Below the pieces are notes generated by a model. The model worked only from the letters and a program-made list of their open reading frames with translations. It searched no databases and was not told the DNA's origin. From NCBI GenBank assembly GCA_946403545.1, contig CAMJAG010000001.1, forward strand, positions 872 through 64,871: a stretch of DNA of 64,000 nucleotides, written 5' to 3'. Positions within the stretch are counted from its first letter, which is position 1. Each line of letters begins with the position of its first letter. The position numbers and the translations under genes are program-made. Shown in pieces: positions 29,394 to 55,427 of this stretch. This DNA is from an uncultured Bacillales bacterium. GTDB lineage: Bacteria; Bacillota_I; Bacilli_A; RFN20; CAG-826.

Positions 29394-29410
29394 AATACTG
29401 TCCTCCTTCA

Positions 29411-29776
29411 TTACTTATTAATGTGTATAGTTAGTATGTTCTCAGCATCATTCCAAGAAGTTGAGAACTTGACTGGCTTATCACTAAGCTCAATCTTTAA
29501 TGCTTCAGATATCTTTTTCATAAGTCCTGTTGAAGATATCCTTGCATATGTTTTTTTAACGGAGATTTGATAAATTGCGTATTCATCCAAGTCACCGCTT
29601 TGGACCTTTTCTTTCGTTAGTGGACGAATCACAACATTCTTATTAACATCTAATCCAACTTGTATTCTATATGCATACTCGAATGGAACAGACGCAATAG
29701 TATTCAATGTAATATTCGTATTATAGAAAGAAGCGGTACCAATTTTTTCTTCTGAACTAAACCATTGAATTTCCAT
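29411..29776 (-). CDS. hypothetical protein co-transcribed with flotillin
   Basis: 121 aa. Its stop overlaps the first in-frame ATG of the flotillin ORF (TAATG). No motif recognised. Confidence 0.5.
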   Translation of the reverse strand: MEIQWFSSEEKIGTASFYNTNITLNTIASVPFEYAYRIQVGLDVNKNVVIRPLTKEKVQSGDLDEYAIYQISVKKTYARISSTGLMKKISEALKIELSDKPVKFSTSWNDAENILTIHINK

Positions 29777-38998: not shown

Positions 38999-39829
38999 AT
39001 GAATAATGAAACAAATAAAAATGAATTAGAGAATGAGAAAGTTTATATTTTCATTTCGCATTCTCATAAAGATATAGAAAAAGTAAGAAAAATTAGAAAT
39101 TATTTAGAGAGTCTTGATTGTGAACCAATTCTTTTCTTTTTAAAAAGCAAAGATGATGAAGATGAGATAATTCAACTTATCAAAGACGAGATTGATGCTA
39201 GAGTTTGGTTTATTTATTGTAGATCTATAAATGCATCTAAATCTAAATGGGTTAATGATGAAGTAACATATGTTGAGCAAACAGGTAAAAACAACATAGT
39301 TATAGATATCGATGGATGCCTAGATGAAAATGGAGAATTAAAAAATAGCGTTAAAAATAAACTTAATGTCATTATTAACGGATTTAGAAACTTACAACAA
39401 TTGTATATTTCTTATTCACACAAAGACTCTGTTGAAGTTCTTCGTATTGTCCAGTTTTTAAAAAGATATGGTGTTGATTTGTTTTATGATGACATGACAC
39501 ATTTTGGATCAGATTGGAAACATTCTATTCATAATCAAATTGTTAAATCGCCATATTTTCTGGTTTTTTTAAGCAAACAATCCATTAATTCACATTTCAT
39601 TTATGATGAAATAAAGCTAGCACAATACTTTAATAAAGAAATAATTCCCGTAATTCTTTATAACAATATTAACGATTATTATTCAGTCATTGAATCAGAT
39701 GTTTTCCAAAAGAATTTTGCATACTTTTTAGTCTGTGAATTCGATACTTCTAGTGATGTTCAATTCAAAGTGTCCTCATTTAGACTGCTAAACACATTAT
39801 TAGAGCATTTCTTTACGGATTTTGAATAA
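38999..39829 (+). CDS. tandem double-TIR domain protein
   Basis: Two TIR-like units: VYIFISHSHKD...SKWVNDEV and LYISYSHKDS...SHFIYDEI. Each keeps the conserved Glu position. Confidence 0.7.
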   Translation: MNNETNKNELENEKVYIFISHSHKDIEKVRKIRNYLESLDCEPILFFLKSKDDEDEIIQLIKDEIDARVWFIYCRSINASKSKWVNDEVTYVEQTGKNNIVIDIDGCLDENGELKNSVKNKLNVIINGFRNLQQLYISYSHKDSVEVLRIVQFLKRYGVDLFYDDMTHFGSDWKHSIHNQIVKSPYFLVFLSKQSINSHFIYDEIKLAQYFNKEIIPVILYNNINDYYSVIESDVFQKNFAYFLVCEFDTSSDVQFKVSSFRLLNTLLEHFFTDFE

Positions 39830-41124: not shown

Positions 41125-41370
41125 TTAAATACAATATCTATAGAATAAAAAGAAAGACACCCCGTCAAGGATGTCTATTGCGGATACCTCGAAGATATCA
41201 GCGAAAGTATTGACTGTATCAAGATTCACTGTTCCTTCGTTTTCAATTCTGCGTAAGTTTCTTACTGAATATCCAACGCGGTCTGCTAGCTCTTCTTGAG
41301 TCCAGTTTCTACTTTTTCTTAGGTTCTTGATGGATGTACCAATCAAGCGTGAATCAATTAATGTTCTCAT
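41125..41370 (-). CDS. XRE-family helix-turn-helix transcriptional regulator
   Basis: NLRKSRNWTQEELADRVGYSVRNLRRIENEG. I prefer the ATG at 41370, which lies 8 nt after GGGAGG. The ORF-track start is 41433. Confidence 0.75.
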   Translation of the reverse strand: MRTLIDSRLIGTSIKNLRKSRNWTQEELADRVGYSVRNLRRIENEGTVNLDTVNTFADIFEVSAIDILDGVSFFLFYRYCI

Positions 41371-41455
41371 AACTACTACCTCCCAAATTGATCTGCTACC
41401 TATATTGACAGGTTTTCCTGAGTTTTGATTCACTAAGTAGTTTATGAGCGTATAT

Positions 41456-41746: not shown

Positions 41747-43099
41747 CTATTTCTTAAATCCTACACAAACAAAGCGGTTAACTGCGTACCAAAAATCATT
41801 TCTAGAGAAACGATATTGGAGTTGCGTTAACAAATCTTCCATTTCATTGAACTCTGCTTTAGTTTGCTCATTTTCGTTTGCGATTAATTGAGCTTTAAAA
41901 TAATTCAATCTATAAGCAAAGCTTACTTTATAAAGACCTAATTTCTCTTCATAAGACATATGAGATGTTTCTGTAACAGTGCAATGCATTTTAACTTTGT
42001 TAAATCCTTCATGGACTAACCAAGAATAAAGTTTTCTACCATTGTTTCTATCAGACATTCCTTCAAGAGAATAAGATTTCTTTAAGACTTTTTCTATAAG
42101 CTCATCATCTCCATAAGAAATCTTACTGCCATCATCACTACCTCTAACAATAATCATTCCGCCTTTATTCATAAGAGCCTTTAAATTCTCTAATGCTTTT
42201 TCAGGATTTGTTAGATGATGGAGGACTAAGAAACAAGAAACAACATCAAAGCCTTTAATGCCCTTTTGCTTCATTATTCCCTGCATTTCCTCCATAAATG
42301 TTGGACTTTCAATATTTAATTGATAGAAAGAGAACTTACTATTTTTATTATTTTTATTTGCTTGTTCAATAGCACTTTCACTAATATCGATTCCCACTAC
42401 TTTAGTGTATTTTGCTTTTCTAAAAGCTTGTCTAGTTACATATCCTTGAGCGCAACCAACATCTAGAACTGTGTAATTGTTTTTGTCTAAATACATGTCT
42501 AAAATGCGTTGGTTTTCATCATCATATCTAGATCCTTGGCTTTTTAATCTTTCTGATTCATTAGTGAAATCAAATTCATAAATAGACCATCTTCCTTTGT
42601 AATCAATGCAATCTTTTGGTCTTGGTCTAGAAACTAAAAACCTATTAAACAATCTCTTTTGATAATCATTTACATCAAAAACATCACCAATTGGTTCACT
42701 ATGACAATCTCTAATTGCGTCAATTTCCTTTGGTAACTTTTTTGGATAATTAACTTTATCTAAGAATAAAACTAGAATATTTAATCCTTCAGTTTTTAAA
42801 GCGGTTTCTATTTCTTGTCTAACCCAGTCATCTTTTTTAAATATTCTCTTAGAAAATGTATCTGGAGTTACAAGAAGAATAAAGTCTTTGGAATTATGGA
42901 TTGCATTAGTTAACTGAGGTGGAAACATACCACCTTGAATTGATACCTTATCAAAGAAACTTAGATAACCATTATCCATCAAATTTCTATATAAAAGATA
43001 CGTTGGATATAATCCATCACTTCTTCTATATGAAATGAAAACATCATATATAAAATCTTTTCTCTTAATTTGAGTGTTTTTATTAATTTCTTCAGGCAT
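41747..43099 (-). CDS. TIR domain fused to a class I SAM-dependent methyltransferase
   Basis: N-terminal TIR (DVFISYRRSDG...DDWVRQEIE). Central methyltransferase motif I VLDVGCAQG, then FDVVSCFLVLHHL and MIIVRGSDDG. SD AGAGGA. Confidence 0.7.
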   Translation of the reverse strand: MPEEINKNTQIKRKDFIYDVFISYRRSDGLYPTYLLYRNLMDNGYLSFFDKVSIQGGMFPPQLTNAIHNSKDFILLVTPDTFSKRIFKKDDWVRQEIETALKTEGLNILVLFLDKVNYPKKLPKEIDAIRDCHSEPIGDVFDVNDYQKRLFNRFLVSRPRPKDCIDYKGRWSIYEFDFTNESERLKSQGSRYDDENQRILDMYLDKNNYTVLDVGCAQGYVTRQAFRKAKYTKVVGIDISESAIEQANKNNKNSKFSFYQLNIESPTFMEEMQGIMKQKGIKGFDVVSCFLVLHHLTNPEKALENLKALMNKGGMIIVRGSDDGSKISYGDDELIEKVLKKSYSLEGMSDRNNGRKLYSWLVHEGFNKVKMHCTVTETSHMSYEEKLGLYKVSFAYRLNYFKAQLIANENEQTKAEFNEMEDLLTQLQYRFSRNDFWYAVNRFVCVGFKK

Positions 43100-43198: not shown

Positions 43199-45580
43199 AT
43201 GTATCCTGAATTACTTGCTATTTTCATTATTACTGGAGTTGTTGAACTCGTTTTAATAGGTGTATTTTTTTATAACCTAATCAGATATAGATATCTTGGT
43301 AATAAATATTTTTACGTAACTGTAAGTGTATTAGTTCTTTTGATGTATTCAACATTCGTCAATAGATCATCAGATCTTTCTATTTCTATGTTTGGAAACA
43401 TAGTGTTTGACACTATTGCGGCAGCAGTAGGTAAAGTTGATACTGAAAAGATTTCTTGGCTGTTTTTACCGGGCGAATGGAATAAATGGCTAGTAATTTT
43501 CTACTTTATCGCCTCATATACAACATTCGCATTCTTATCCATCACAGTTATTCTTAACTTTGCAAAACTCTTCTTAAATGCATTTATTTTCTATAAAAGA
43601 CGAATTATAAATGGAGCAAATGTGTACTATTTGTTCACAGATTCTAGAAATGAAACAGTAATTCCTTTAGCCACTAAACTATTAGATGAAACAAAAGGTC
43701 GTAAAAACTCAGTTAAAGTTTTCGTTTCTAGAGCATCTTTAAAAACTCAAGAAGGTAATGAATTTAGAGATATGTTAGTGGGCTTAGGCATTCCTGTTCA
43801 AGCTGAAAAATTCTCATACAGGATGGCTAGAAAGATCTTTAATTCTAGATACTTCAAACTACATCTTTTTGATAAGCAACAATCGTTTATTTACTTACTT
43901 TTCTCAAATGACGAAACCACTACAAAAGTGGCAACTGATTTCAAAACAGCGATTCAAAAGAATCGTAAGTTTAAAAAAATTAACGACTTTGTAACTCTTT
44001 TAAAGGAAACAAAAGACAAAGATAAATTAGAGAAATTAAAAGAGAACTTTAATGAGAAAGAATATGATTTATTACAAAAAATCCAAATCTTTGTCACTTA
44101 TCAAGAAACAGATTTAGATATTCTCCATAACTTCTCTGGAGAGACATTGCATATCATGAATACTCTTTCTAAGTACGACATGATTGCTTCTAGATTTGTA
44201 TTTGATAATCCAATCTCTCAATTAGTGGACTTAAACAACATCAAACTTAAAGAAGACAATAAACATTTAAATGTTACACTCCTTGGTTTTGGTGTTATTG
44301 ATAGAGCAATATTTGAAAGAATGACATTCTCTTATCAACTTTATGGAGATAATATTAACAAAGTTAATTACCATGTTTTAGATAGAGATGCTGATTCTTT
44401 AATTAAACCTTATGTAAACGAATATACAGATAGAAATAACAGTGTTTATCTATACTCTATCGACTCCGCTTTCGATGGAGAAGATTTAAGACACTACGAA
44501 ACAATTGATAGATATATCTCATCATTGCAAAACGATCCAAACCGTTTCCAAGATGATGGTTTTGAAATCTTTGTTATTTCAGTCATAAACTCAAATAACG
44601 ATTTAAATATCGCGCTTAACTTAAGAAGAGCTATCTTAAAATACTTCAATGATAGATGTGAACAAGTTGTTATTTACGTCAGAGTTGCAGAAAGACTCAT
44701 TGGAGAACAATTCAGAGGTTCAAATCTTTCATACACATACGAAACTCTCTCTCATATTCACGAAGTAAAAGACTTCAATAAGAAATCTGATGTAGAGAAA
44801 GAAGCATACTTCAACTCATTCAAGGACGAGGAAGAAAGAAAAGCAGCAGAGAAAAGATTAATTAAAGATTTAAAAGCACCTATCATTCTCTTTGGTAATG
44901 ATGCAATTATGTCCACATATCTTGCTAGAGAACATAAATACTTCATGGGATTCGCTGAAAACGCTTGGAAATCCTACCAATTAGAACAAGCTTATAACAA
45001 TTATTCTGAAACTCAACTTGATAGATTATGGTTAAGACAAAATAAACAAGAAGTTAAAAATAACACTGATTATGTTCTTTCACTTAGAACAAAGCTAAAC
45101 TTATTTGGCTACAAACTAAATCTAAATAAACAAGAAAACCAATACTTAATGGTTCCTGGTGATGATGTTTCAATTCTTACTTCAGGTGAAAATGAAGAAA
45201 CATTCCTTGAAAGAACAAAACTTAAAGATGAAACTGGTGATGTTGCAAAAGTTCTTAAGATTGCTGATATGGAACATAACCGCTGGTTACAATCCAATAA
45301 CCAAAGATTTAGATATTTATCTAAAGATTACACAAAGGTCGAGGATCAAGAACTATTTGGAGTGAATAAATACACCAATGAAAAAGAAATCACAAGGAAA
45401 TATAACGACAATACACAACACATTTGTATGGTCACTAATGAGGGATTAAGAGACTTCTACAATTATGTTGGAAAGAAAAATCCTGAATATAAAGATGTCG
45501 CTTTAAAACTTGTGTACACAAACGATATTGTTCAGTTAAGAACGATAATCAAAAATGGAACAGAACAAAAGAATAAATAA
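43199..45580 (+). CDS. large membrane protein with Rossmann-like (GxGxxD) segment and weak C-terminal RyR-like signature
   Basis: Four or five N-terminal TM segments. VTLLGFGVIDRAI. C-terminal IADMEHNRWLQSN. SD GAGG. Confidence 0.5.
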   Translation: MYPELLAIFIITGVVELVLIGVFFYNLIRYRYLGNKYFYVTVSVLVLLMYSTFVNRSSDLSISMFGNIVFDTIAAAVGKVDTEKISWLFLPGEWNKWLVIFYFIASYTTFAFLSITVILNFAKLFLNAFIFYKRRIINGANVYYLFTDSRNETVIPLATKLLDETKGRKNSVKVFVSRASLKTQEGNEFRDMLVGLGIPVQAEKFSYRMARKIFNSRYFKLHLFDKQQSFIYLLFSNDETTTKVATDFKTAIQKNRKFKKINDFVTLLKETKDKDKLEKLKENFNEKEYDLLQKIQIFVTYQETDLDILHNFSGETLHIMNTLSKYDMIASRFVFDNPISQLVDLNNIKLKEDNKHLNVTLLGFGVIDRAIFERMTFSYQLYGDNINKVNYHVLDRDADSLIKPYVNEYTDRNNSVYLYSIDSAFDGEDLRHYETIDRYISSLQNDPNRFQDDGFEIFVISVINSNNDLNIALNLRRAILKYFNDRCEQVVIYVRVAERLIGEQFRGSNLSYTYETLSHIHEVKDFNKKSDVEKEAYFNSFKDEEERKAAEKRLIKDLKAPIILFGNDAIMSTYLAREHKYFMGFAENAWKSYQLEQAYNNYSETQLDRLWLRQNKQEVKNNTDYVLSLRTKLNLFGYKLNLNKQENQYLMVPGDDVSILTSGENEETFLERTKLKDETGDVAKVLKIADMEHNRWLQSNNQRFRYLSKDYTKVEDQELFGVNKYTNEKEITRKYNDNTQHICMVTNEGLRDFYNYVGKKNPEYKDVALKLVYTNDIVQLRTIIKNGTEQKNK

Positions 45581-45588
45581 CCTATGAA

Positions 45589-45614
45589 AAGCCATAGAAC
45601 TGGCTTTTCTTTTT
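45589..45614 (+). terminator. intrinsic terminator after the 793-aa gene
   Basis: AAGCCA (45589-45594) pairs with TGGCTT (45601-45606), followed by TTCTTTTT. Confidence 0.6.
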
Positions 45615-45632
45615 ACTTTACACTACAAATAC

Positions 45633-45645
45633 ACGCATAATGCGT
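45633..45645. promoter_or_regulatory. perfect palindrome ACGCAT-A-ATGCGT abutting a TATAAT box (candidate operator)
   Basis: Palindrome at 45633-45645. TATAAT at 45648-45653. The operon starts at 45695. Confidence 0.3.
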
Positions 45646-45694: not shown

Positions 45695-46618
45695 ATGATT
45701 ACAGAAATTCATAAGAATTATTCTGCTTTTCGAGAAATGTTGTTAGCCACAACTGCTTTAAGCAACCGTTCTAGTAAGAAATATGATGACGATTGCAAAG
45801 CAATCATTGATTTCATCGGAGAAGCATATGGTCTAGAAAAAGACCTCGTAGAATATTGTAAAAAGGTCATTTTAGATGAACTAGTTACAATATCTACTGA
45901 CCAAGATATCCGCGCTTTCGTAAATTCACATACCGCTGACAGTGAATTAGAAGAATTAGACTCTTTATTAAGCGCTAAATGTGATGTTATTGGAGTTATT
46001 AGAAACTTTGGAGAAGTTAGAAGTCCTCAATTAAGTGAGACTTGGTTTGACTATAGTCATAGCAATCCATATTATCCAGAAATTAGATATCAACAATTAT
46101 CTATCGCTGCTTCCACAGGTAATGTAGTAGCAAATAAGATCGTTGGTATTCTTTCTGTTTTAGGTATTGGATGCGAAGCTACTAGAGAAAAGGTTCTTTC
46201 TGGAGTTTATAGACTTAGACAATGCGCTATTTGGGGAGACATTTCTTCTCTAATTATGATTAGACAAGTTTATAGAATCTTAGAAATGAAAGAACAAGTA
46301 AAACTCTATGATGAATTAGTGTCATTAGTACCTTTCATGAAAGAAGGAAGAACAGTAATTCCTCAAAGAATTGCAGAGAAAATCTCTAGAGAAGCAATAG
46401 AAACATTCGCAATTATCTGTTCTATTAAACAAGACATTATCTTAAATCAACATAAGTTCTACATAGATTATTCATTCGTTGAAGTTATGTTACTTAAAGA
46501 AGTTGATTACTATGATAAACTCCACTTCATTAATAAATATGACGCTCAAGAGTGGAAAGAAGTTACTAACTCATCATTTAATCCAAATAAGAAGATTGGA
46601 TTTAAGATTGGAGAATAG
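45695..46618 (+). CDS. helical repeat protein (Sel1/TPR-like?)
   Basis: 307 aa. The segment AASTGNVVANKIVGILSVLGIGCEATREKVLSGVYRLRQCAIWGD resembles Sel1-like repeats. SD GGAG. Confidence 0.35.
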   Translation: MITEIHKNYSAFREMLLATTALSNRSSKKYDDDCKAIIDFIGEAYGLEKDLVEYCKKVILDELVTISTDQDIRAFVNSHTADSELEELDSLLSAKCDVIGVIRNFGEVRSPQLSETWFDYSHSNPYYPEIRYQQLSIAASTGNVVANKIVGILSVLGIGCEATREKVLSGVYRLRQCAIWGDISSLIMIRQVYRILEMKEQVKLYDELVSLVPFMKEGRTVIPQRIAEKISREAIETFAIICSIKQDIILNQHKFYIDYSFVEVMLLKEVDYYDKLHFINKYDAQEWKEVTNSSFNPNKKIGFKIGE

Positions 46619-46621
46619 ATT

Positions 46622-48586
46622 ATGAAAAGAAGACCATATTCTGAACAAGTATCTCAAAAATACATTGATCAAAATCTTGAAAACACTCAAATAATGTCCT
46701 TCCTTGAATATAAAGGTAAAGGCTACGCTAAATACTTATTTGATGATTTAGCAAAAACTGATATCAAAGGATTCCCATTCTCTAGTGATTTTGTATCTTC
46801 TAAAGGGAAATCATATTCCTTTATTGATTTTGAAAATCTAAGTGATAAAGAAAAAGCGGATTGTAAACTTAGATTCTTCTATTTACCTAATTATCATGAG
46901 TTATATATCGGTACTACTGGTTCTGGTAAAACTACAGGATGTATTGAACCACAAATCAGAGCGATATCCACTCAAAAGAATAAAGCTAACTTATTTATTA
47001 CTGACCCTAAAGGTGAGTTATTTGAACATAATGGTAAATACTTAAAAGACCAAGGTTATAACGTATTTGTTCTTAACTTTAGAAACTTAGGTAGAACTCA
47101 TACATGGAATCCACTTAAAGAAATGTATGAAAAACAAATGGAATCTCTCACTATTGGAAAGAATAGTAAGAAATGTAATTGTCCAGTAGATAAGTCACTA
47201 GCGTTAATGTCTGAAAAGAGTAAATATCAAGGCACATATATTGCTTATAAACACATGGCATTTGCAACACAAGAAGACTTTGATAAATACGTGAATATTG
47301 AAACTTATTTAAATAAATCCAAAGTTTCTTCATTAGTTAACCAATTATGTGACTGTATCTTTAGTGAAGATAAATCCACTACAGATAGAACTTGGAGTGA
47401 TGGTGCTAGAGGATTATTCCATGGTATTTTATTGTCCATGTTAGAAGAAGCTGTTTTACCAGGAAGTAAGTTTAGCGAACAACATATGACATTAAAGACA
47501 GTTAACGATATCTTCAATTTAATTAGAGAAGGTAGCGAAACTCGCGATTCATATGGAGATCACTACACTAACGAAGAAATGCATGAGAAGATGGTAGACT
47601 TCTTGCATGGTAAATCATCTATTTGTATGAGCAAGTTAAATAATATTATTAAGACTGCTCAAACAACGAGAAAAGGGTTTTTATCAACATTCTTATCCAC
47701 TACTGAAAAATGGATGCAAGGTCACATCTATCAATTGACAAGTCATACATCTATTTCTCTAGAAGATAATGAACATCCTTGGGCGGTATTTGTATCCACT
47801 AGAGACTATGATAAATCAGATAATGTTATCGCTGGTTTATTCATTGACTGGGTATATAGACAATCTCTACAAGCTGTTGAAGAGAAACGTAAACTCGGTT
47901 TAGAACCTAGACCAATTCACTTCTTATTAGATGAATTCGCTAACATTCCAAGAATCCCTGACTTTGATAATAAGATTGCTACTGCTAGAAGTAGAAATAT
48001 GTGGTTCCACTTATTCGTTCAATCTTATGATCAATTAGATTTAATCTATGGAGAAGAAACAGCCTCTATTATCGTAGATAACTGTAACCAACAAACATTC
48101 TTAGGTTCTCAATCTCAAGAAACTAAAGAAAGATTCTCTAGAGAATGTGGTAAAAAGACTGTTACATCCTTAGAAGGTGTTATTCATGGTGAAGTTAACG
48201 ATGTTGTAGAAATCCCAGTTGTGCCTATCACAAGTCTAGATCAAATCAAACCTGGTGAAATGTACACTAAACGTATTTATTCTCCAATATTAAGATGTAG
48301 CTTTATCAGAAGCTATCAATGCGCTCAACAAGGTATCTTTAAAAACTTCTGGAATAATAAAGCGGAAGAAGAACTTATTCCACTTAACTATGTTATTCCT
48401 GATGATTTAGAACATTCTTATTTACCAGTATTAAGCGCTATTGAAGTAAGAAGATTATGTCCACCTAGACCAAGAAATCCTCGTAGTAGAGTTCAATACG
48501 AAGATGAAGACATGGAAGCAGAAGATCCTGAAGACTTTGAAGACTTCTTACATGAAGTTCAACTTAAGATGAAAGGAAAGAAGTAG
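46622..48586 (+). CDS. soluble VirD4/TraG/TraD-family (type IV coupling protein-like) P-loop ATPase
   Basis: Walker A GTTGSGKTTG. FITDPKGE. Walker B-like HFLLDEFANIP. Also FHLFVQSYDQL. No N-terminal TM segments. Acidic C-terminal tail. Confidence 0.7.
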   Translation: MKRRPYSEQVSQKYIDQNLENTQIMSFLEYKGKGYAKYLFDDLAKTDIKGFPFSSDFVSSKGKSYSFIDFENLSDKEKADCKLRFFYLPNYHELYIGTTGSGKTTGCIEPQIRAISTQKNKANLFITDPKGELFEHNGKYLKDQGYNVFVLNFRNLGRTHTWNPLKEMYEKQMESLTIGKNSKKCNCPVDKSLALMSEKSKYQGTYIAYKHMAFATQEDFDKYVNIETYLNKSKVSSLVNQLCDCIFSEDKSTTDRTWSDGARGLFHGILLSMLEEAVLPGSKFSEQHMTLKTVNDIFNLIREGSETRDSYGDHYTNEEMHEKMVDFLHGKSSICMSKLNNIIKTAQTTRKGFLSTFLSTTEKWMQGHIYQLTSHTSISLEDNEHPWAVFVSTRDYDKSDNVIAGLFIDWVYRQSLQAVEEKRKLGLEPRPIHFLLDEFANIPRIPDFDNKIATARSRNMWFHLFVQSYDQLDLIYGEETASIIVDNCNQQTFLGSQSQETKERFSRECGKKTVTSLEGVIHGEVNDVVEIPVVPITSLDQIKPGEMYTKRIYSPILRCSFIRSYQCAQQGIFKNFWNNKAEEELIPLNYVIPDDLEHSYLPVLSAIEVRRLCPPRPRNPRSRVQYEDEDMEAEDPEDFEDFLHEVQLKMKGKK

Positions 48587-48587
48587 T

Positions 48588-49133
48588 ATGGCTAACGATA
48601 ATTTTGAAGAATTATATAAACAAGGAATTATAGTCATCACTACTGGTATAGAAGATATGGATGTTACTAGTAACATCATCTTATCTCTTCTTAATTGGAA
48701 CAGAATTGATCCAAAGAAAGAATTACAACTCTATATCTCTTCAGTATCTGGAGACTACCTAAATGTCCTTTCTATTTATGACGCTATCCAATCAATTAGT
48801 AATCCAATTTCAGGATATTGTATTGGTTTAGTTGGTAGTTGCGCTGCACTACTTTTAGCGGCGTGTAACAAAGGTAAACGCTACATTTTAGAGCATAGTC
48901 AAATTGCTTTAAGAGAGATTTCTGGCATTATTCCTGGTGGAAGTAAACAACAAACAGAAATCGAAATTCTCGCAAACGAATTAGCGTCTCAAAGAGAAAC
49001 ATTTGAATCTCTTCTTTCAAAACATACAGGTCAATCCGTTGAAGAAATACACCACCTTTGCTATGAAAACACTTATTTAACTCCTGAAGAAGCTATTAAA
49101 AAAGGCTTCGTAGATAAGATTGTGAGGAAATAA
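48588..49133 (+). CDS. ClpP-like (S14) subunit, predicted catalytically inactive
   Basis: Aligns by eye with ClpP. Ser is kept (GLVGSCAA), but His is replaced (IALREI versus IHQP) and Asp is replaced (YENTYL versus ERDRFL). Confidence 0.6.
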   Translation: MANDNFEELYKQGIIVITTGIEDMDVTSNIILSLLNWNRIDPKKELQLYISSVSGDYLNVLSIYDAIQSISNPISGYCIGLVGSCAALLLAACNKGKRYILEHSQIALREISGIIPGGSKQQTEIEILANELASQRETFESLLSKHTGQSVEEIHHLCYENTYLTPEEAIKKGFVDKIVRK

Positions 49134-49135
49134 TT

Positions 49136-49648
49136 ATGGATAACAGAATTATTACTTTAAATGGTGAAATCAACGAAGGAAGCGCGATGAAAGTTATTCT
49201 TTCATTACTTCAAATGGATGCTGAAAATAGAAAACAACCAATATATCTATATATCAACTCTCCTGGTGGAAATATTGTTCATGGATTAGCAATATATGAT
49301 GTTATGAATAACATATCCGCTCCGGTATATACAGTATGTAATGGCATGGCAGCATCGATGGGTAGTTTCTTACTCTCTTGTGGTGCTAAAGGACATAGAT
49401 ATTGTTTAAAACACTCTCGTATTCTTATCCATCAACCACTTGTCTATAACAACTATGGAAGAATGATTGAAGAAAGCGAAGCTCAACAAATCGCCGCTAA
49501 TTTAAGAAAAGATAGAGATAAATTAGAACAAATCATGGCAGACAATTCTGGTAAAGACATTAAAGTCTTCCATAAGGATTGTGAAAGAGACCATTGGATG
49601 AGCGCTCAAGAAGCTCTAGACTATGGTCTAATAGATAAGATTATCTAA
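49136..49648 (+). CDS. ClpP-like (S14) serine protease subunit, catalytic triad intact, N-terminal axial region missing
   Basis: YINSPGG, GMAASMG (Ser), ILIHQP (His) and CERDHWMSAQEA (Asp). It starts at the position equivalent to RVIFLTG of canonical ClpP. Confidence 0.7.
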   Translation: MDNRIITLNGEINEGSAMKVILSLLQMDAENRKQPIYLYINSPGGNIVHGLAIYDVMNNISAPVYTVCNGMAASMGSFLLSCGAKGHRYCLKHSRILIHQPLVYNNYGRMIEESEAQQIAANLRKDRDKLEQIMADNSGKDIKVFHKDCERDHWMSAQEALDYGLIDKII

Positions 49649-49650
49649 GA

Positions 49651-49680
49651 AAAGAGGAAGTCCTAGACTTCCTTTTATTT
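49651..49680. terminator. bidirectional terminator shared by the convergent operons
   Basis: GGAAGTC (49656-49662) pairs with GACTTCC (49666-49672), flanked by an A-run and a T-run. Confidence 0.65.
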
Positions 49681-50433
49681 CACTCTATTAAGTATTAACT
49701 CAAGTGTTTCTTGGTTATTTGCAACCACTAATGAATCGCTACCAAATTCGTATTCTTTTTTATTGATGGTTTTATAAACCATTCCAGCTTCTTTTATCAA
49801 TAAAAGACCTGGTGCTATATCCCATATGTAATTGTAGTAGCAGATATATGCTTGTGCTTTTGATGTGGCTAATGTAGTAAAGTCTACACAAGCCGCTCCT
49901 AAAAGTCTCGTTTTAAGGAAATTCCCTTGTAAATCCTTCATTAATTCAAATTGTTTATCAAATGAAATGGTTTTGTTATCTTTATAAAAATCACTAGATA
50001 ATAAAACTCCATCTTCATGTTTAATATCTTTATTTACTTTAATAGGTTTTCCATTAAGGAAAGCTCCACCATCTTTCTTAGCAAGATATAACTCATCCTT
50101 ATATGGCAAATAGATTATTGATAACACTACTTCTTTCCTTTGGAAAACCGCTAGTTGAATACCACAAAGTTCTATGCCCATTGAATAGTTACAAGTGCCA
50201 TCAAGTGGATCGATAACAAAGGTTAGTTCATCTGTTAGTGGTTCGTTTTTACTTTCTTCTGCGATTATTTTTGCTTGAGGGAATTCTTTTTTAATAGCGT
50301 TAACAAAATAATCATTAAGTTCTAAATCCGCTTCTGAGAGTAAGTCATTAATAGATTTATGTTTAATTGATTTATGTTGCTTAAAGAATATGTCTTTTGA
50401 AGATAAAACTAGTTGTTTTAAATACTCTTCCAT
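49675..50433 (-). CDS. inositol monophosphatase / CysQ-family phosphatase
   Basis: Motifs IDPLDGTCNY and WDIAPG. Starts 4 nt after the TIR-STAND stop. Confidence 0.75.
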   Translation of the reverse strand: MEEYLKQLVLSSKDIFFKQHKSIKHKSINDLLSEADLELNDYFVNAIKKEFPQAKIIAEESKNEPLTDELTFVIDPLDGTCNYSMGIELCGIQLAVFQRKEVVLSIIYLPYKDELYLAKKDGGAFLNGKPIKVNKDIKHEDGVLLSSDFYKDNKTISFDKQFELMKDLQGNFLKTRLLGAACVDFTTLATSKAQAYICYYNYIWDIAPGLLLIKEAGMVYKTINKKEYEFGSDSLVVANNQETLELILNRVK

Positions 50434-50437
50434 GCGA

Positions 50438-53284
50438 TTATCCCTTCAAATCTCTAATAAATTTCTCAACATGTTTAATCCATGTTAATACTGATTCATT
50501 TTGTAAGTATTCGTATTTTCTTGTTACTTTTTGTGCTTCGCAAATCAAATTATATAAAGCTTGTGCTTCAGTTAATTCGATTGGAATATTTAGTTTTTCC
50601 GCAATTTCAATTGCTTCAGAACAAGGAGCTTCCGCTTTTGCAAGTAAGGAAGTATCTCCATTATAGTTTACTAAATAGTAAAGAGAAGTTAAGAAATAGA
50701 TTTGACCTTGGTCATATAAATCTTTATTCTCTTTAGCACATTTCATTGCTTCTTCTTTTAATTCCATGATCCTTGCTTCATTGCCACGATTAACAATTTC
50801 ATAGAACATAGATGTATATAAGAATCTTGTGTAATATCTATCATGTTGGTTATATAAGACATAGATTGCTTCCGCTTTATTAAGTTTATCTTTAGCTTTA
50901 GCTAAATCCATATGCCATATACATGCATCAGCGTATACACGATAGTCTTCCGCTAAGAAGAGGTGATCTCCAATTTGAGTGCCATCTTCCATTTCTTCTT
51001 TAACTCTTTTATCAAGAAGCGCGACAGCATTATCTGCTGCTTTATAGCAGTTTTCTAAATCAAGCCTTCTACAATAAACTTTTGATAAAGTTAAGTTAAT
51101 CAAAGATTCTTCGTATAAATCGCCTGCTTCTTTAGCGTCTTTGATCGCACCATCACTCATTCCTATGAGTTCGTCGAATAGCACCATCTTGCGATAAACA
51201 AGCATTGCCATTCTTTCAAATTCACTACGAATTTCTATGTCTAATTCGCCTAAATCATGTTCTTTGATGAATTCTTTAATGTCATTAAATGCTTCAGTAA
51301 ATGATAAGGAAATATAGTGGAATTGAATAACTCCCATATCATAGTTCACATCATCACTTGGATCTCTATTCTTTAAGAACTTACCAAATCCTGCTTCTTT
51401 AAGTTTGATAAATAAGCCAGCGTTATAGATTGCTTGTCTATATTTGATAAAGATTTTTGTAAAACATTCAGACTGATAGATTTCAAACGCTTCATAATCA
51501 TCATCCTTATAGATGTAATTGATGTTATCAATGTATTCAAATAATCCTTCATAAAGAGTGTAAAGTTTTGATTTAATACACACTCTTAAAAAGTCAAAAT
51601 TCTTTAATAGTTTACAAAGTTTTTCTGTCTTTTTAAGTGCTTTTAAGGCTTTTTGATAGTCTAAGATGACATAAGGATTGTTCTTCCATTCACCTAATTC
51701 AATTTGCTTTTCAATATATTCAAGCAAGATCTTATAACCATCTCTTCTAGAGACACAATATTTTGCAGGACATTCGTTAGATTCACTTAACCAGTCTAAA
51801 ATTGATTTATGTCTACTCTTAAGAGTGCCATCTTCAATAATTACAAAGTAATTAGATACTATATCGATATTCTTTCTAATTTCAGATTCTGATAGACCTG
51901 TTGCATCCGCTAAAAACTCCACTGTTGGAGGAACGCTTGTAGCGAGTAATAAAGATATAATCTTTCTAATATCTTCATAATCATCTGGTGCTTTAGGGAA
52001 AATTCTATCAAACCAGATTAAGTAGTATGAATAAATTCCGTCAGGGAATTCTCTAACGTTATCTAAAGAGTATTCACCACTCTTAATTAGACTAACAATA
52101 CTCTTAGCATATAAGAATGATCCATGTGTTTTTCCAAGCAAAATCCTCAGTGTTTCTGCATCGAATTTATAATTTGAGAGTGCTTGGTCATAATACTTTT
52201 TAATATCCGCAACGTTTTCTTCATTGTTTTCTAACATGCTGAAAACGTGACAACTTGAGAAGTAACTAACAACATTCTTTTGAGGTCTAGTTGAACATAA
52301 AATCTTTAACCAAGAAGGTAAAGTGTTTTGATAAGTCACTATCATCTCAGCAATTTCATTTTTATTATCCAAAACTGCTTCATCTAATGCATCGATAACA
52401 ATTATTTGAGGGTTCTTAAAAGTAACTTTGTTACCTACTTCAATAAAGAACAACTCAAATAATCTTTTAGCGTCTAAATTATCTATATTTGCTTCTCTAG
52501 TTAAAATCTTTTTAATTTCGAGATTATAATCTTCGTTACGACCAGCGATTTGTGCTGCTAAGTTTTTAATAATACTTCTAGCGTCAGTCTTAGTTCTATT
52601 ACCAAAGCTACAGAAATGGATACCTGCAACATTGTTATGGAAATTAATAGTTAACATAGCGCACATTGCAGTCTTTCCAATACCTGGAGCAGCTTGTAAT
52701 AAATAGATTGGTAAACTATCTGGTTTATTAATCCATTTTTCTACATCCGCGAAGAAAGAATCTCTACCAACAAAGTTGAGTGTATGATGAGTAATTTCAA
52801 AAGCGTCAATAGCTTGGACTTCTTTAGAAATATCAAAACCAGTATCGAAGTAGCCTACTTCTTCTTCGTTTCTAACGATCTTTAGTAATCTTTGATAGCA
52901 ACTTTCGTATACATCTTCAATGATTGAATTATCCGCTGCGACAGCGTTTTTAATCATGATTCTTTGTAAACGAACAATTGAAAGAGGAACATAAGAGTCA
53001 TCTAACATGATAGGAACAATTGTTTTCTTATATTCCACTGCTCTAGCGAGTTCATTTAAACAATATCCGTCTAGAGAAACAGACTTTTTAGATACAAAGA
53101 AAACAAAATGACTACATCTTTGAATCGCGTTATCAATTTTAGTTTCCCAATCACCTTGATATAGATAGTCCTTATCAAGGAAGACTTCATAAACTTCTTC
53201 TTTGCGTAAATCAGTAACAACTTTATTGACTACGTTTTCTAAAGTTTGATGTCCATAGGATATGAAAATAACTTGTTTATCCAT
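50438..53284 (-). CDS. TIR - STAND P-loop NTPase - TPR-like repeat protein (Avs/bNACHT-like architecture)
   Basis: TIR (VIFISYGHQ...GYCLNELA). Walker A APGIGKTA. Walker B IIVIDALDEA. The C-terminal roughly 400 aa is a helical repeat region. Confidence 0.75.
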   Translation of the reverse strand: MDKQVIFISYGHQTLENVVNKVVTDLRKEEVYEVFLDKDYLYQGDWETKIDNAIQRCSHFVFFVSKKSVSLDGYCLNELARAVEYKKTIVPIMLDDSYVPLSIVRLQRIMIKNAVAADNSIIEDVYESCYQRLLKIVRNEEEVGYFDTGFDISKEVQAIDAFEITHHTLNFVGRDSFFADVEKWINKPDSLPIYLLQAAPGIGKTAMCAMLTINFHNNVAGIHFCSFGNRTKTDARSIIKNLAAQIAGRNEDYNLEIKKILTREANIDNLDAKRLFELFFIEVGNKVTFKNPQIIVIDALDEAVLDNKNEIAEMIVTYQNTLPSWLKILCSTRPQKNVVSYFSSCHVFSMLENNEENVADIKKYYDQALSNYKFDAETLRILLGKTHGSFLYAKSIVSLIKSGEYSLDNVREFPDGIYSYYLIWFDRIFPKAPDDYEDIRKIISLLLATSVPPTVEFLADATGLSESEIRKNIDIVSNYFVIIEDGTLKSRHKSILDWLSESNECPAKYCVSRRDGYKILLEYIEKQIELGEWKNNPYVILDYQKALKALKKTEKLCKLLKNFDFLRVCIKSKLYTLYEGLFEYIDNINYIYKDDDYEAFEIYQSECFTKIFIKYRQAIYNAGLFIKLKEAGFGKFLKNRDPSDDVNYDMGVIQFHYISLSFTEAFNDIKEFIKEHDLGELDIEIRSEFERMAMLVYRKMVLFDELIGMSDGAIKDAKEAGDLYEESLINLTLSKVYCRRLDLENCYKAADNAVALLDKRVKEEMEDGTQIGDHLFLAEDYRVYADACIWHMDLAKAKDKLNKAEAIYVLYNQHDRYYTRFLYTSMFYEIVNRGNEARIMELKEEAMKCAKENKDLYDQGQIYFLTSLYYLVNYNGDTSLLAKAEAPCSEAIEIAEKLNIPIELTEAQALYNLICEAQKVTRKYEYLQNESVLTWIKHVEKFIRDLKG

Positions 53285-53966
53285 GTACTTTTTCCTCTAA
53301 AGCAATGTTATAACCCGCTTTCTTGCCTTCATTTAATGTTTCTTCATTTGCTAAATGCATAAGAGTAATTTTCTTTCTCTCTTCCATATTGAAGGCGTTA
53401 TTTAATACTGAAATATGAGTATGTATCATCGCATTAAGAGAAGTTGTAACTTCATGATACATTTCATCTATTTTTCCTGATTTAAGTTCTCTAACTGCTC
53501 TATCAAGTAGTTCAGATGTATCTCCTGAATAGTAGAAATTAATTTCTTTAGAATATACAAAATATGCATAACTACCAGGAATATGTGGAACTTCAACAGG
53601 TTCCACTTTTAAATCTTTGATTAAAGAGTAGTCATTATATATTTCAAAATCAAAATCTAAACCAGTTAATTGGAGTAGTTTTTTAAGATTATCTTTTAAA
53701 GGATAGAAGACTTTTACCGTCTTTTTTGAGAAGAAATGAATCCAATATAAGAATGGTTCAAGGCTTCCAATATGATCACTATGAAGATGGGTAATTAAAA
53801 CAACAATTTCATCAACATCATCTAAAAGATGAAGTGCTAAAATCTTGTCACAAATTTTCTCGCCCATATCAAAAATATACAATTTGCCATTTTGTTTAAA
53901 ATAAGCACAATTGTTATTTGTGAAATAGTTAAAAGCGGCTCCTACACCTAAAAATTTTAAATACAT
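53277..53966 (-). CDS. metallo-beta-lactamase-fold hydrolase
   Basis: HxHxDH motif as ITHLHSDHIG. Overlaps the TIR-STAND start by 8 nt. Confidence 0.75.
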   Translation of the reverse strand: MYLKFLGVGAAFNYFTNNNCAYFKQNGKLYIFDMGEKICDKILALHLLDDVDEIVVLITHLHSDHIGSLEPFLYWIHFFSKKTVKVFYPLKDNLKKLLQLTGLDFDFEIYNDYSLIKDLKVEPVEVPHIPGSYAYFVYSKEINFYYSGDTSELLDRAVRELKSGKIDEMYHEVTTSLNAMIHTHISVLNNAFNMEERKKITLMHLANEETLNEGKKAGYNIALEEKVHG

Positions 53967-53968
53967 AA

Positions 53969-54226
53969 TTATTTAATTATCTTATAGCCTTCTTTAAGAA
54001 TACATTTAATCGTAGCAAGAGCGGTATTCCTATCATATTCTTTTTCTTCTTCAGGAAGTTCATCATAAGGCACTAAACAAGGAGTTTGTTTTTTAGTGTC
54101 ATTTCTTTCTGGACCATAGGTCCATCCATCTTTGATTCTTCCTTCCATCCAAGTTATATGGACTTGTTCCGCTATTATTTCGATAAGTTGTTTTATATCT
54201 TCAGTGATAACAATATCTTTTTCCAT
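53969..54226 (-). CDS. stand-alone RyR (ryanodine-receptor repeat) domain protein
   Basis: AEQVHITWMEGRIKDGWTYGPERNDTKKQTPCLVPYDELPEEEKEYDR closely follows the bacterial RyR-domain consensus. Confidence 0.7.
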   Translation of the reverse strand: MEKDIVITEDIKQLIEIIAEQVHITWMEGRIKDGWTYGPERNDTKKQTPCLVPYDELPEEEKEYDRNTALATIKCILKEGYKIIK

Positions 54227-54228
54227 AA

Positions 54229-54666
54229 TTATTCGTCTTCTAGTATTTTTTGAAATAAGCTGTATTCATCTCTAGTTATTGTATCATCACTAGCAGTTAG
54301 AGCGATACCATATAAAACAACAGCAGTTTTAGTATCTTCATCAAATTCTTCTTTGATATTATTTACCATTGCTTTAACAAAAGCTTCTTTATCTCCAAAT
54401 TGAGTAGCATGGAAGAATTCTCTATAAGAAACATCTAATCCTGTTGCTTCTTTAAAGAATCCATATTCCTTAACAGCGCAATCTTTATCAGCAGAAACGT
54501 ACATTCTAGTTAAGTTAATAACAATATTAGCGATTCTATCTTTGTGATAATCTTGTTTTCTAAGATTACGATAAAGTCTTTCTAAAGCTTGTCTACCTAA
54601 CTTTGCTCTTTCAGCATCTTCTAAATTAACAACTTCATGCATGACTCGTTCTACTTCTTTATTCAT
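54229..54666 (-). CDS. TerB-like domain protein (paralog 2)
   Basis: Two half-motifs, YVSADKDCAVKEYGFF and LTASDDTITRDEYSLF, resemble TerB. Confidence 0.5.
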   Translation of the reverse strand: MNKEVERVMHEVVNLEDAERAKLGRQALERLYRNLRKQDYHKDRIANIVINLTRMYVSADKDCAVKEYGFFKEATGLDVSYREFFHATQFGDKEAFVKAMVNNIKEEFDEDTKTAVVLYGIALTASDDTITRDEYSLFQKILEDE

Positions 54667-54681
54667 AATATGTTCTTCCTA

Positions 54682-54903
54682 TTATTTTTTACTTTTTAGA
54701 TTACAAGCATTTGGGAAATTAATTTCCCACGCTGCTGCTCTTGCTATTTGAAGTAATTTATATTTCTTATCTTCATCAGTTATCTCTTTGATAACTTCTT
54801 TAGTATTTGGATTTAACAAAAATATTTTGGATTCTTTAACTCCAAATACTGAATCTCTTACTTCGTATAAGTGTCTTCCGTTACGAAATTGAAATGGTTT
54901 CAT
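54682..54903 (-). CDS. hypothetical small protein
   Basis: 73 aa. Its start overlaps the upstream stop (TAATG). Confidence 0.45.
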   Translation of the reverse strand: MKPFQFRNGRHLYEVRDSVFGVKESKIFLLNPNTKEVIKEITDEDKKYKLLQIARAAAWEINFPNACNLKSKK

Positions 54904-55331
54904 TATGCAAGCAATTTGTCGATTAAATCTTGTTCTGCAACTGTTAATGTGTGGTCACTTGCTAAGAAAGTAACTGCAAATAAGACCATACTTGTTCTTG
55001 TTTTGTTATCTGCTTTTTTCATTAAGTTAGCAAATTCATTAACATAATCATCATCTAAGCCACCATTGGTCATGTCATAGAATGTATCTGTATCCATATC
55101 AATACCAGTGACTGCTCTAAAGAAAGAATATTCTGCTCCACTACATTTGCCATCAGCAGAAACTAAAATTCTAACTAAGTGAATAATTAAGTTAGTAATT
55201 TCATCCTTATTACAACCGAGTTCTTTTAAACCTCCGATAAAGTCGTTTAAAGCATGTGCAGCAATATTAACTTTTTCTTGTGGTTCTTCGTTTAAAATGT
55301 TTTGGCACATTTTTCTTAATTCAGCATCCAT
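54903..55331 (-). CDS. TerB-like domain protein (paralog 1)
   Basis: LVSADGKCSGAEYSFF and FLASDHTLTVAEQDLI. I prefer the ATG at 55331 (MDAELRK), which lies 7 nt after GGGAGGA. The ORF-track start is 55349. Confidence 0.5.
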   Translation of the reverse strand: MDAELRKMCQNILNEEPQEKVNIAAHALNDFIGGLKELGCNKDEITNLIIHLVRILVSADGKCSGAEYSFFRAVTGIDMDTDTFYDMTNGGLDDDYVNEFANLMKKADNKTRTSMVLFAVTFLASDHTLTVAEQDLIDKLLA

Positions 55332-55427
55332 ATGAAATCCTCCCATCATTAATGAAAGACTTCAAACATATAGTTTTTGTCCATTCAATTACATATAAAT
55401 ATCTGTCTAAATTTATTTTATCATTTT

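Follow-up and report, generated by a model that had tools for sequence, protein, structure and literature searches.

The window analysed here, a stretch of 64,000 nucleotides from an uncultured Bacillales bacterium (assembly GCA_946403545.1, contig CAMJAG010000001.1, positions 872 to 64,871 of the forward strand), carries two adjacent ClpP-like genes, named cpA and cpB in this work, directly behind the gene of a VirD4/TraG-type ATPase. cpB encodes a catalytically intact ClpP paralogue and cpA a catalytically dead one, neither has the N-terminal hairpin of canonical ClpP, and the two are kept together as a co-diverging pair in gut and rumen Firmicutes. We propose that the pair makes up an open-pored, heteromeric, ClpP/ClpR-like peptidase that acts as an optional proteolytic output module of a system consisting of the ATPase, a repeat protein (MID) and a large membrane protein (BIG), a reading to which we give about even weight for and against. 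The five genes form one array, with cpA and cpB last:

43199..45580, plus strand: BIG, a 793-residue membrane protein with N-terminal transmembrane helices, tandem RCK/KTN (TrkA-N-like) Rossmann domains and a C-terminal helical domain
45695..46618, plus strand: MID, a 307-residue, all-alpha Sel1/TPR-like repeat protein and invariant partner of the ATPase
46622..48586, plus strand: ATPase, 654 residues, a soluble P-loop NTPase of the VirD4/TraG/TraD type (type IV coupling protein-like)
48588..49133, plus strand: cpA, 181 residues, a catalytically dead ClpP paralogue (ClpR-like pseudo-protease) without the N-terminal beta-hairpin
49136..49648, plus strand: cpB, 170 residues, a catalytically intact ClpP paralogue without N-terminal hairpin and helix A

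Both terminal genes encode members of the ClpP family, as a sequence-only reading of the window, made without database searches, had supposed. Pfam CLP_protease (PF00574, MEROPS S14) matches both proteins over their full length (1.4e-39 for cpA and 1.8e-58 for cpB), and their top relatives among solved structures are bacterial ClpPs, that of B. subtilis for cpA (7e-28) and that of H. pylori for cpB (3e-45). The identity of cpB to canonical ClpP is 40–45%. Every NCBIfam ClpP cutoff is missed (198.5 bits for cpB and 134.8 bits for cpA, the cutoff being 249), and cpB has a weak match to NfeD1b_N (0.0018) that lies far under the cutoff of that model. Active-site residues were read from HMMER alignments and from a MAFFT alignment including the E. 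coli and B. subtilis ClpPs. The Ser/His/Asp triad of cpB is complete (MAASMG, ILIHQP and CERDHW), in line with the earlier claim for this open reading frame (ORF). In the cpA copy of the window, a serine is present in LVGSCA, the histidine is replaced by arginine (IALREI) and the aspartate by asparagine (CYENTY, read before as YENTYL), so the alignment against ClpP leaves only one of the two proteins with an intact triad. The two replacements had been recognized correctly by eye; the retained serine is real in the window copy and does not hold as a feature of the family, since its position is variable. Compared with the E. coli and B. subtilis ClpPs, both paralogues also have an insertion of 3–4 residues after the His-block (about 48900–48915 and 49440–49455), located at the start of the handle strand at the ring–ring interface (IHQPLVYNNYG versus IHQPLGGYQG).

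The N-terminal truncation, also claimed beforehand for both ORFs, is confirmed by the alignment starts and by upstream stops. The first residue of cpA aligns with about residue 16–19 of the reference ClpPs (about 16 in B. subtilis ClpP), and that of cpB with about residue 26–28 of H. pylori ClpP; the axial beta-hairpin is missing from cpA, and cpB is additionally without helix A. An in-frame stop is found 6–7 codons 5' of the start of each gene, which makes the truncation genuine and not an annotation artefact, and a Shine-Dalgarno-like motif precedes both starts. The truncation is kept in all pairs aligned. In addition, Y60 and F82, canonical H-site residues in work on ClpP with acyldepsipeptides (ADEP) and on the IGF loop, are unconserved in both cpA and cpB. 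In canonical ClpP, the axial pore is plugged and gated by the N-terminal loops, which take on an ordered form when the AAA+ partner binds the apical hydrophobic H sites with its IGF loops (PMC9035409). Because both subunits are without the N-terminal hairpin, the chamber is predicted to be open-pored and to lack normal gating by an AAA+ partner (ClpX, ClpA or ClpC).

To place the pair in a wider context, the alignment of the ATPase family was used to scan one genome per species, which yielded 382 matching stretches; 80 genome loci were retrieved, all from gut or rumen metagenome-assembled genomes (MAGs), a few of them with non-Firmicutes bin labels. Of these 80 loci, 18 contain the ClpP pair, and together with the window and five metagenomic loci they give 24 non-redundant pair loci from gut and rumen Firmicutes. 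cpA precedes cpB in 24/24 pairs, with a spacing of -1 to 21 nucleotides (nt) where the starts are unambiguous; larger apparent overlaps in three loci stem from the choice of the longest-ORF start. A separate search with cpA returned a small family (P0001–P0014) of 40–100% identity, mostly 175–181 residues long with one call of 201, beneath which the scores fall to ordinary ClpPs of about 200 residues. On every contig long enough to show the context, a cpB-type gene directly follows the cpA of this family, and the family is found exclusively beside the ATPase.

The two subunits have sharply different conservation patterns across the 24 pairs. In cpB, G68, S97, M98, H122, D171, E169 and R170 are invariant, with a CERDNW-type signature. 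A full triad is found in none of the 24 cpA proteins: His122 is never kept, the oxyanion residue Met98 is replaced in all, and G68 and the ring–ring sensor E169/R170 are lost. The Ser97 position is occupied by glycine in 12, asparagine in three, serine in three, glutamine in two and other residues (including aspartate, glutamate and alanine) in the rest, and we therefore regard the serine of the window copy as incidental. Nevertheless, cpA is uninterrupted and of constant length (175–183 residues) in every pair from Bacilli to Clostridia, and it has about 30 near-invariant core positions of its own, among them I76, Y77 and D78, K108, G109 and R111, and Q131, Q132, T133 and E134. In a bootstrapped neighbour-joining tree, which sampled canonical ClpPs and no cyanobacterial or plastid ClpR sequences, cpA and cpB each form a clade with 100/100 support, and in 75/100 replicates the canonical ClpPs sampled are separated from a group of cpA, cpB and the single-gene forms described below. 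The rate of evolution of cpA is roughly double that of cpB, and across loci the two proteins show correlated pairwise distances (r=0.66).

Three loci (L074, L079 and L086, of Acholeplasmatales, Anaeroplasmataceae and Izemoplasmatales type) encode one intact, N-terminally short ClpP beside MID and the ATPase. These single proteins fall beside the cpB clade in an unbootstrapped neighbour-joining tree, and the grouping has 46/100 support. The residue patterns and the tree point to an old duplication that yielded a maintained pseudo-enzyme partner, as with ClpR, rather than a decaying copy. That the pair is a dedicated heteromeric peptidase, as had been suggested from the window sequence, is well supported, if indirectly, by the fixed adjacency and order, the 100/100 clades, the co-divergence and the exclusive association of cpA with one gene context. 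The further suggestion of a non-canonical gating partner is plausible; for the ATPase in this role, we infer the physical coupling from gene order only.

The candidate partner is defined by its sequence as follows. The ATPase matches Pfam T4SS-DNA_transf (1.6e-37), TraG-D_C (8e-28) and TrwB_AAD_bind (5e-20); it scores 240.4 bits against NCBIfam conju_CD1115, whose cutoff is 250, and far under the cutoffs of other models, and a sequence search against the PDB returned nothing at E<=0.01. Walker A (GTTGSGKT) and Walker B (HFLLDEF) are invariant in the family alignment. As read from the sequence and that alignment, the first 90 residues form a conserved, hydrophilic stretch, and no transmembrane anchor is present. 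The C-terminal tail (encoded in the window at 48500–48586) consists of an acidic run followed by aromatics (DFEDF, IEDF, IEGW) in nearly all family members. This tail was considered as a ClpP-docking motif, comparable to IGF or HbYX, and rejected in that role, with tails such as FDDFDF and WGVFDD being present in loci without ClpP; by analogy with TraD–TraM and with TPR proteins that take EEVD tails, it more likely binds MID. Distant relatives of the ATPase with 28–30% identity occur in Anaerovoracaceae, Oscillospiraceae and Lachnospiraceae (L087–L092) in another conserved cluster, which encodes proteins of about 1300 and about 650 residues and neither MID nor ClpP. This cluster probably represents a different system or a genuine conjugative element.

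MID accompanies the ATPase in 79 of 92 ATPase loci by ORF clustering. Its residues 243–305 give a sub-threshold match to the Pfam immunity protein Tis1 (4.9e-4; 20.6 bits, the cutoff being 27). The large membrane proteins fall into three clusters, BIG3, B4 and B7, which are mutually homologous (hhalign 97–99%), and a gene of this family is found in almost all ClpP loci as well as in loci without ClpP. The C-terminal helical domain of BIG corresponds in the B4 family to a genuine RyR domain (1.3e-5 in Pfam; 95.8% in hhalign against the small RyR family). RyR-bearing B4 proteins are encoded in L021 (6960–9326), L023, L034, L039, L040, L045, L049 and L054, and further ones in L055, L058, L062–L064, L069 and L077. 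The RyR domain fused in B4, compared with the free RyR gene near Bacilli-type loci, makes a fusion-versus-separate-gene pattern.

The hosts are Enteromonas, Erysipelotrichaceae and Acholeplasmatales- and Izemoplasmatales-type lineages among the Bacilli, and Christensenellaceae, Pumilibacteraceae and Stercoripulliclostridium among the Clostridia. In addition to the 18 genome loci with the pair, three carry a single active ClpP gene. MID and the ATPase are thus the invariant core, to which BIG is often and the ClpP pair sometimes added as an optional accessory. Where present, the pair always lies within one or two genes of MID, the ATPase or BIG, mostly with intergenic gaps of -4 to +21 nt, in four arrangements: MID>ATPase>cpA>cpB; cpA>cpB>MID>ATPase; B4<cpB<cpA< divergent from MID>ATPase>; and MID>ATPase>B7>cpA>cpB>B4. 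The gene order was rearranged several times without separating the pair from the cluster, and this is good evidence that they are functionally linked. In one Enteromonas MAG (L015:49–5900), the pair is found between two ATPase copies, in the order ATPase>cpA>cpB>MID>ATPase. In the window, the gaps from MID through cpB are 1–3 nt, and in loci of the MID>ATPase>cpA>cpB type the ATPase stop is -4 to +11 nt from the cpA start.

The near-contiguity of ATPase and cpA in Bacilli-type loci, the lack of a common AAA+ neighbour (no AAA+ Clp ATPase family is among the 25 commonest neighbour families of these loci) and the loss of the ClpP elements that AAA+ partners use make the ATPase a candidate partner. 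In Clostridial neighbourhoods, the AAA matches include Lon and RuvB. We propose that cpB would be the catalytic subunit and cpA a ClpR-like dead subunit kept as a structural partner. The ring ATPase, aided by MID as a repeat adaptor, would select a protein and hand or thread it to the cpA/cpB chamber at the membrane, where the substrate may be BIG itself or a client recruited to BIG. With its RCK and RyR domains, the system would respond to ligands of the adenine-nucleotide type. Judging from the flanking TIR enzymes and the free RyR protein, the ligand in the Bacilli lineage to which the window belongs might be a TIR-made, ADP-ribose-derived signal and the setting conflict or defence. A stronger version, in which the chamber would be a new immune effector, driven by a VirD4/TraG-type ring ATPase that replaces the gate, anchored and regulated by an RCK/RyR membrane protein, and switched by TIR signals in Bacilli, we consider doubtful.

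Several observations weigh against the proposed coupling and its nucleotide-controlled or defensive setting. First, about 70% of the genome loci with the ATPase family are without any ClpP, and the ATPase therefore has a function that does not require ClpP. Second, the acidic/aromatic tail of the ATPase is equally present with and without ClpP, and there is no insertion or residue signature in the protein that tracks ClpP presence. The classic role of VirD4-type proteins, moreover, is that of DNA and relaxase couplers, not of unfoldases. Third, in Clostridia the pair shares one transcription unit with B7 and B4 (B7>cpA>cpB>B4 or B4<cpB<cpA<) and not with the ATPase. Fourth, the neighbours of the ClpP-bearing Clostridial loci include ruvABC, queA, lon and engB, TIR genes being absent, and ClpP-less loci of Clostridia likewise lie among housekeeping genes. 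Finally, the RyR similarity of the BIG protein of the window is not significant, with a short LEHNRW-type motif alone aligning, and none of cpA, cpB, MID and BIG has a meaningful match in PADLOC-DB v2.

In the alternative that survives best, the pair would be a peptidase that stays open at all times, works without ATP and processes or trims a protein of its own cluster, in the first place BIG, B4 or B7, with the ATPase as a pathway neighbour and not a docking partner. It would resemble the ClpP-fold NfeD/STOPP proteases, and we regard it as possible, though on the unlikely side. Gate loss predicts that peptides and unfolded chains could enter without an ATPase (from what is reported on ClpP gating, PMC9035409). 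The Clostridial pair is co-transcribed with B7 and B4 and sometimes divergent from MID>ATPase, the near-constant presence of a BIG-family gene in ClpP loci, with BIG also found elsewhere, would suit a processed component, and the missing ClpP-specific signature in the ATPase and the NfeD1b_N match of cpB count in the same direction. Against it, the NfeD match is far under its cutoff, the loci L016 and L022 have the pair with MID and the ATPase and no BIG within reach, and the ATPase and cpA are almost contiguous in Bacilli-type loci, and BIG may belong to a separate transcript. The last point comes from two signals behind BIG, both found by consensus scan only; a third element lies at the other end of the array:

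45586..45609, plus strand: terminator-like hairpin with a T run after BIG
45612–45641: promoter-like site
49655..49673, strand not assigned: GC-rich hairpin in the 26-nt gap between cpB and the convergent gene of the inositol-monophosphatase family

Given the hairpin and the promoter-like site, BIG may be transcribed apart from the next four genes, and the GC-rich hairpin is likely a bidirectional terminator that closes the operon.

The pair could also be a second set of ClpP isoforms, like ClpP1P2 of actinobacteria, Listeria and Chlamydia, that uses ordinary ClpX, ClpC or ClpE encoded elsewhere. Organisms with several ClpPs are common, and cpB, at its level of identity to canonical ClpP, has all catalytic and ring–ring residues intact. 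However, the loops that contact the AAA+ partner and gate the pore are missing in both proteins, together with helix A in cpB, the Y60/F82 positions are unconserved, both proteins score under every NCBIfam ClpP cutoff, and the pair occurs in strict linkage with the MID/ATPase/BIG cluster, all of which makes this explanation improbable.

That cpA is a functionless, decaying duplicate and cpB alone matters would explain the twofold faster evolution of cpA and its loss of every catalytic feature, but a gene that stays intact at 175–183 residues in every pair from Bacilli to Clostridia, keeps about 30 near-invariant positions and co-diverges with its partner is very improbable as a relic; the three single-gene lineages, which keep the active type, show that a gene can be lost, and yet cpA persists in the other lineages.

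The weakest alternative, prophage or integrative and conjugative element (ICE) cargo, with a ClpP-like prohead protease pair or a conjugation apparatus with a real coupling protein, takes its appeal from matches of cpB to PHROGs head-maturation protease families (5e-35) and from the conjugal VirD4-like protein being the nearest named family of the ATPase, and is already effectively refuted, with scarcely any probability left to it: the ClpP model scores 198 bits against 82 bits for the prohead model Clp_rel_HeadMat, the phage matches to cpA are ordinary ClpPs of <=38% identity, among plasmid sequences the ATPase has a best match of 28% identity, confined to the NTPase core, the ATPase is without the transmembrane anchor typical of coupling proteins, chromosomal housekeeping genes flank the cluster in many taxa, and the window has no capsid, portal, terminase, relaxase or VirB4 genes. 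Relaxase and type IV secretion system (T4SS) genes were absent from the scanned ORFs of 26–58 kb, the largest ORFs of 1–26 kb and the sampled flanks. The prohead-protease alternative, which the sequence-only reading had itself raised and for which it had seen no capsid genes nearby, is thus ruled against.

To our knowledge, all ClpP proteases described so far receive their substrates from an AAA+ unfoldase via N-terminal gating loops and hydrophobic docking sites. The present proteins constitute a gate-less ClpP lineage that pairs an active with a dead subunit outside cyanobacteria and plastids and is linked by gene location to a conjugation-type ATPase. If it is true that this ATPase feeds the chamber, the rules for building compartmentalised proteases would be broader than thus far seen, coupling-protein-like motors would gain a new activity, and the pair would be the first case in which a non-AAA+ translocase, of the FtsK–HerA class, drives a protease of the ClpP family. 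Even without such a partnership, the cluster of Sel1/TPR adaptor, VirD4-like ATPase, RCK/RyR membrane protein and, in part of the loci, the ClpP pair is an undescribed system. Full-text literature searches turned up no account of a cluster that combines a VirD4-like ATPase with ClpP, and selected papers of the Aravind laboratory on conflict systems make no mention of ClpP, VirD4 or RyR.

Comparison with characterized proteases helps to delimit the pair. One parallel is with the cyanobacterial ClpP3/ClpR and plastid ClpP/ClpR cores, where an active paralogue is likewise accompanied by a triad-less one conserved as a structural component. Those cores keep their N-terminal regions and use the AAA+ proteins ClpC or ClpX, whereas cpA and cpB are both without the gating hairpin, belong to gut Firmicutes, go back to a duplication of their own (as their separate clades indicate) and are linked to a VirD4-type ATPase. 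ClpP1P2 of Mycobacterium, Listeria and Chlamydia resembles the pair in that two adjacent or co-expressed paralogues build one hetero-oligomeric chamber. Both of its subunits, however, keep the triad and the N-termini, with the AAA+ partner docking on one face, while cpA is dead and neither cpA nor cpB has docking or gating elements. cpB agrees with canonical ClpXP and ClpAP in fold, triad and oxyanion residues and in the oligomerisation sensor E169/R170; the pair differs from them in the absence of axial loops, of conserved Y60/F82, of scores reaching the NCBIfam cutoffs and of an AAA+ neighbour. The NfeD/STOPP–stomatin systems, where the protease cleaves its operon partner stomatin, likewise encode a serine protease of the ClpP fold that has no gating of the ClpP type, next to a membrane protein as its possible target. 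NfeD proteases, though, are membrane-anchored Ser-Lys dyad enzymes of another subfamily, whereas cpA and cpB are soluble and derived from ClpP proper.

On the side of the motor, the ATPase shares with the type IV coupling proteins VirD4, TrwB, TraD and TraG, and with conju_CD1115, the P-loop NTPase core, the all-alpha domain and the TraG-D_C region, and its acidic/aromatic tail is of the kind through which TraD binds TraM. Unlike them, it lacks a transmembrane anchor and has neither relaxase nor T4SS genes in its neighbourhood, stands in a chromosomal housekeeping or TIR-rich context, is paired with a Sel1/TPR-like protein and scores just under the family cutoff.

The setting of the cluster, which is rare and limited to uncultured gut and rumen Firmicutes, differs between lineages, being embedded in islands of TIR/RyR nucleotide signalling in some of them. 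Among 115 neighbour proteins of Bacilli-type loci we found eight TIR_2, seven RyR, four ThsB_TIR and three NACHT-like STAND matches. In the window, the following genes flank the array:

38999–39829, plus strand: double-TIR protein (TIR_2 2e-26, ThsB_TIR 4e-10)
41125–41433: Xre-type helix-turn-helix gene, between the two upstream TIR genes
41747–43099, minus strand: TIR fused to an S-adenosylmethionine-dependent methyltransferase
49675–55349, minus strand: seven tightly packed genes convergent on the ClpP operon, including those listed below
49675–50433, minus strand: phosphatase of the inositol monophosphatase (IMPase)/CysQ family
50438–53284, minus strand: TIR-NACHT-like STAND protein, 948 residues
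53277–53966, minus strand: metallo-beta-lactamase (MBL)-fold, Apyc1-like hydrolase (6e-12, under cutoff)
53969..54226, minus strand: stand-alone RyR-domain protein, 85 residues (Pfam RyR 3.3e-26)
54229–54666 and 54903–55349, minus strand: two TerB-like paralogues of 145 and 148 residues (TerB 0.0025 and 0.031, under cutoff), with a 73-residue ORF between them

The segment 49675–55349 looks like a separate TIR/nucleotide-signalling system, and its genes and the upstream TIR genes are linked to the ClpP operon of the window by co-location only. The free RyR family (cluster 5) occurs in 14 loci, all of them Bacilli-type, and the protein may tentatively be placed in the same functional neighbourhood as the Bacilli-type ClpP loci. 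The TerB-like paralogues (cluster c6) occur in 12 loci, where they co-occur with the RyR gene, and their link to the ClpP cluster is likewise tentative. RyR/R12 domains bind or cleave the TIR-made cyclic ADP-ribose signals 2'/3'cADPR (PMC13232231). The Bacilli-type loci resemble Thoeris-type TIR signalling and RyDEP in having several TIR genes beside RyR/R12 proteins; they differ in that a ThsA-type effector (SIR2-SLOG or Macro) is not present in the window, that the Clostridial clusters are without TIR genes, and that the RyR (RyDEP) proteins characterised so far are phage counter-defence factors.

A defence island as the universal setting was rejected, the enrichment in TIR and RyR being limited to Bacilli-type loci. 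In Christensenellaceae (L040, L049 and L063; L034 and L039), the cluster occupies a stable housekeeping site between ruvC-ruvA-ruvB-queA and engB-lon. A defence role is not general, since the Clostridial loci lie in housekeeping neighbourhoods without TIR genes; for the Bacilli variant it is plausible and unproven. A nucleotide-regulated, membrane-associated proteolytic system would fit both contexts. Identity with a known anti-phage defence system was rejected as well, as the component proteins match no system model of PADLOC-DB v2, in which the ATPase gives a weak mad8 match (2e-10) and BIG a chance-level match to Csm3.

The rest of the window is of housekeeping character, with genes for a phosphoglucomutase, an ABC transporter, a cardiolipin synthase, a flotillin-like protein and a cysteine synthase. 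The flotillin-like gene (27903–29776, minus strand) encodes an SPFH/Band 7 protein of 502 residues, and its start is overlapped by the stop of a preceding 121-residue ORF. The two may form an NfeD-like/SPFH pair, which appears unrelated to the ClpP cluster.

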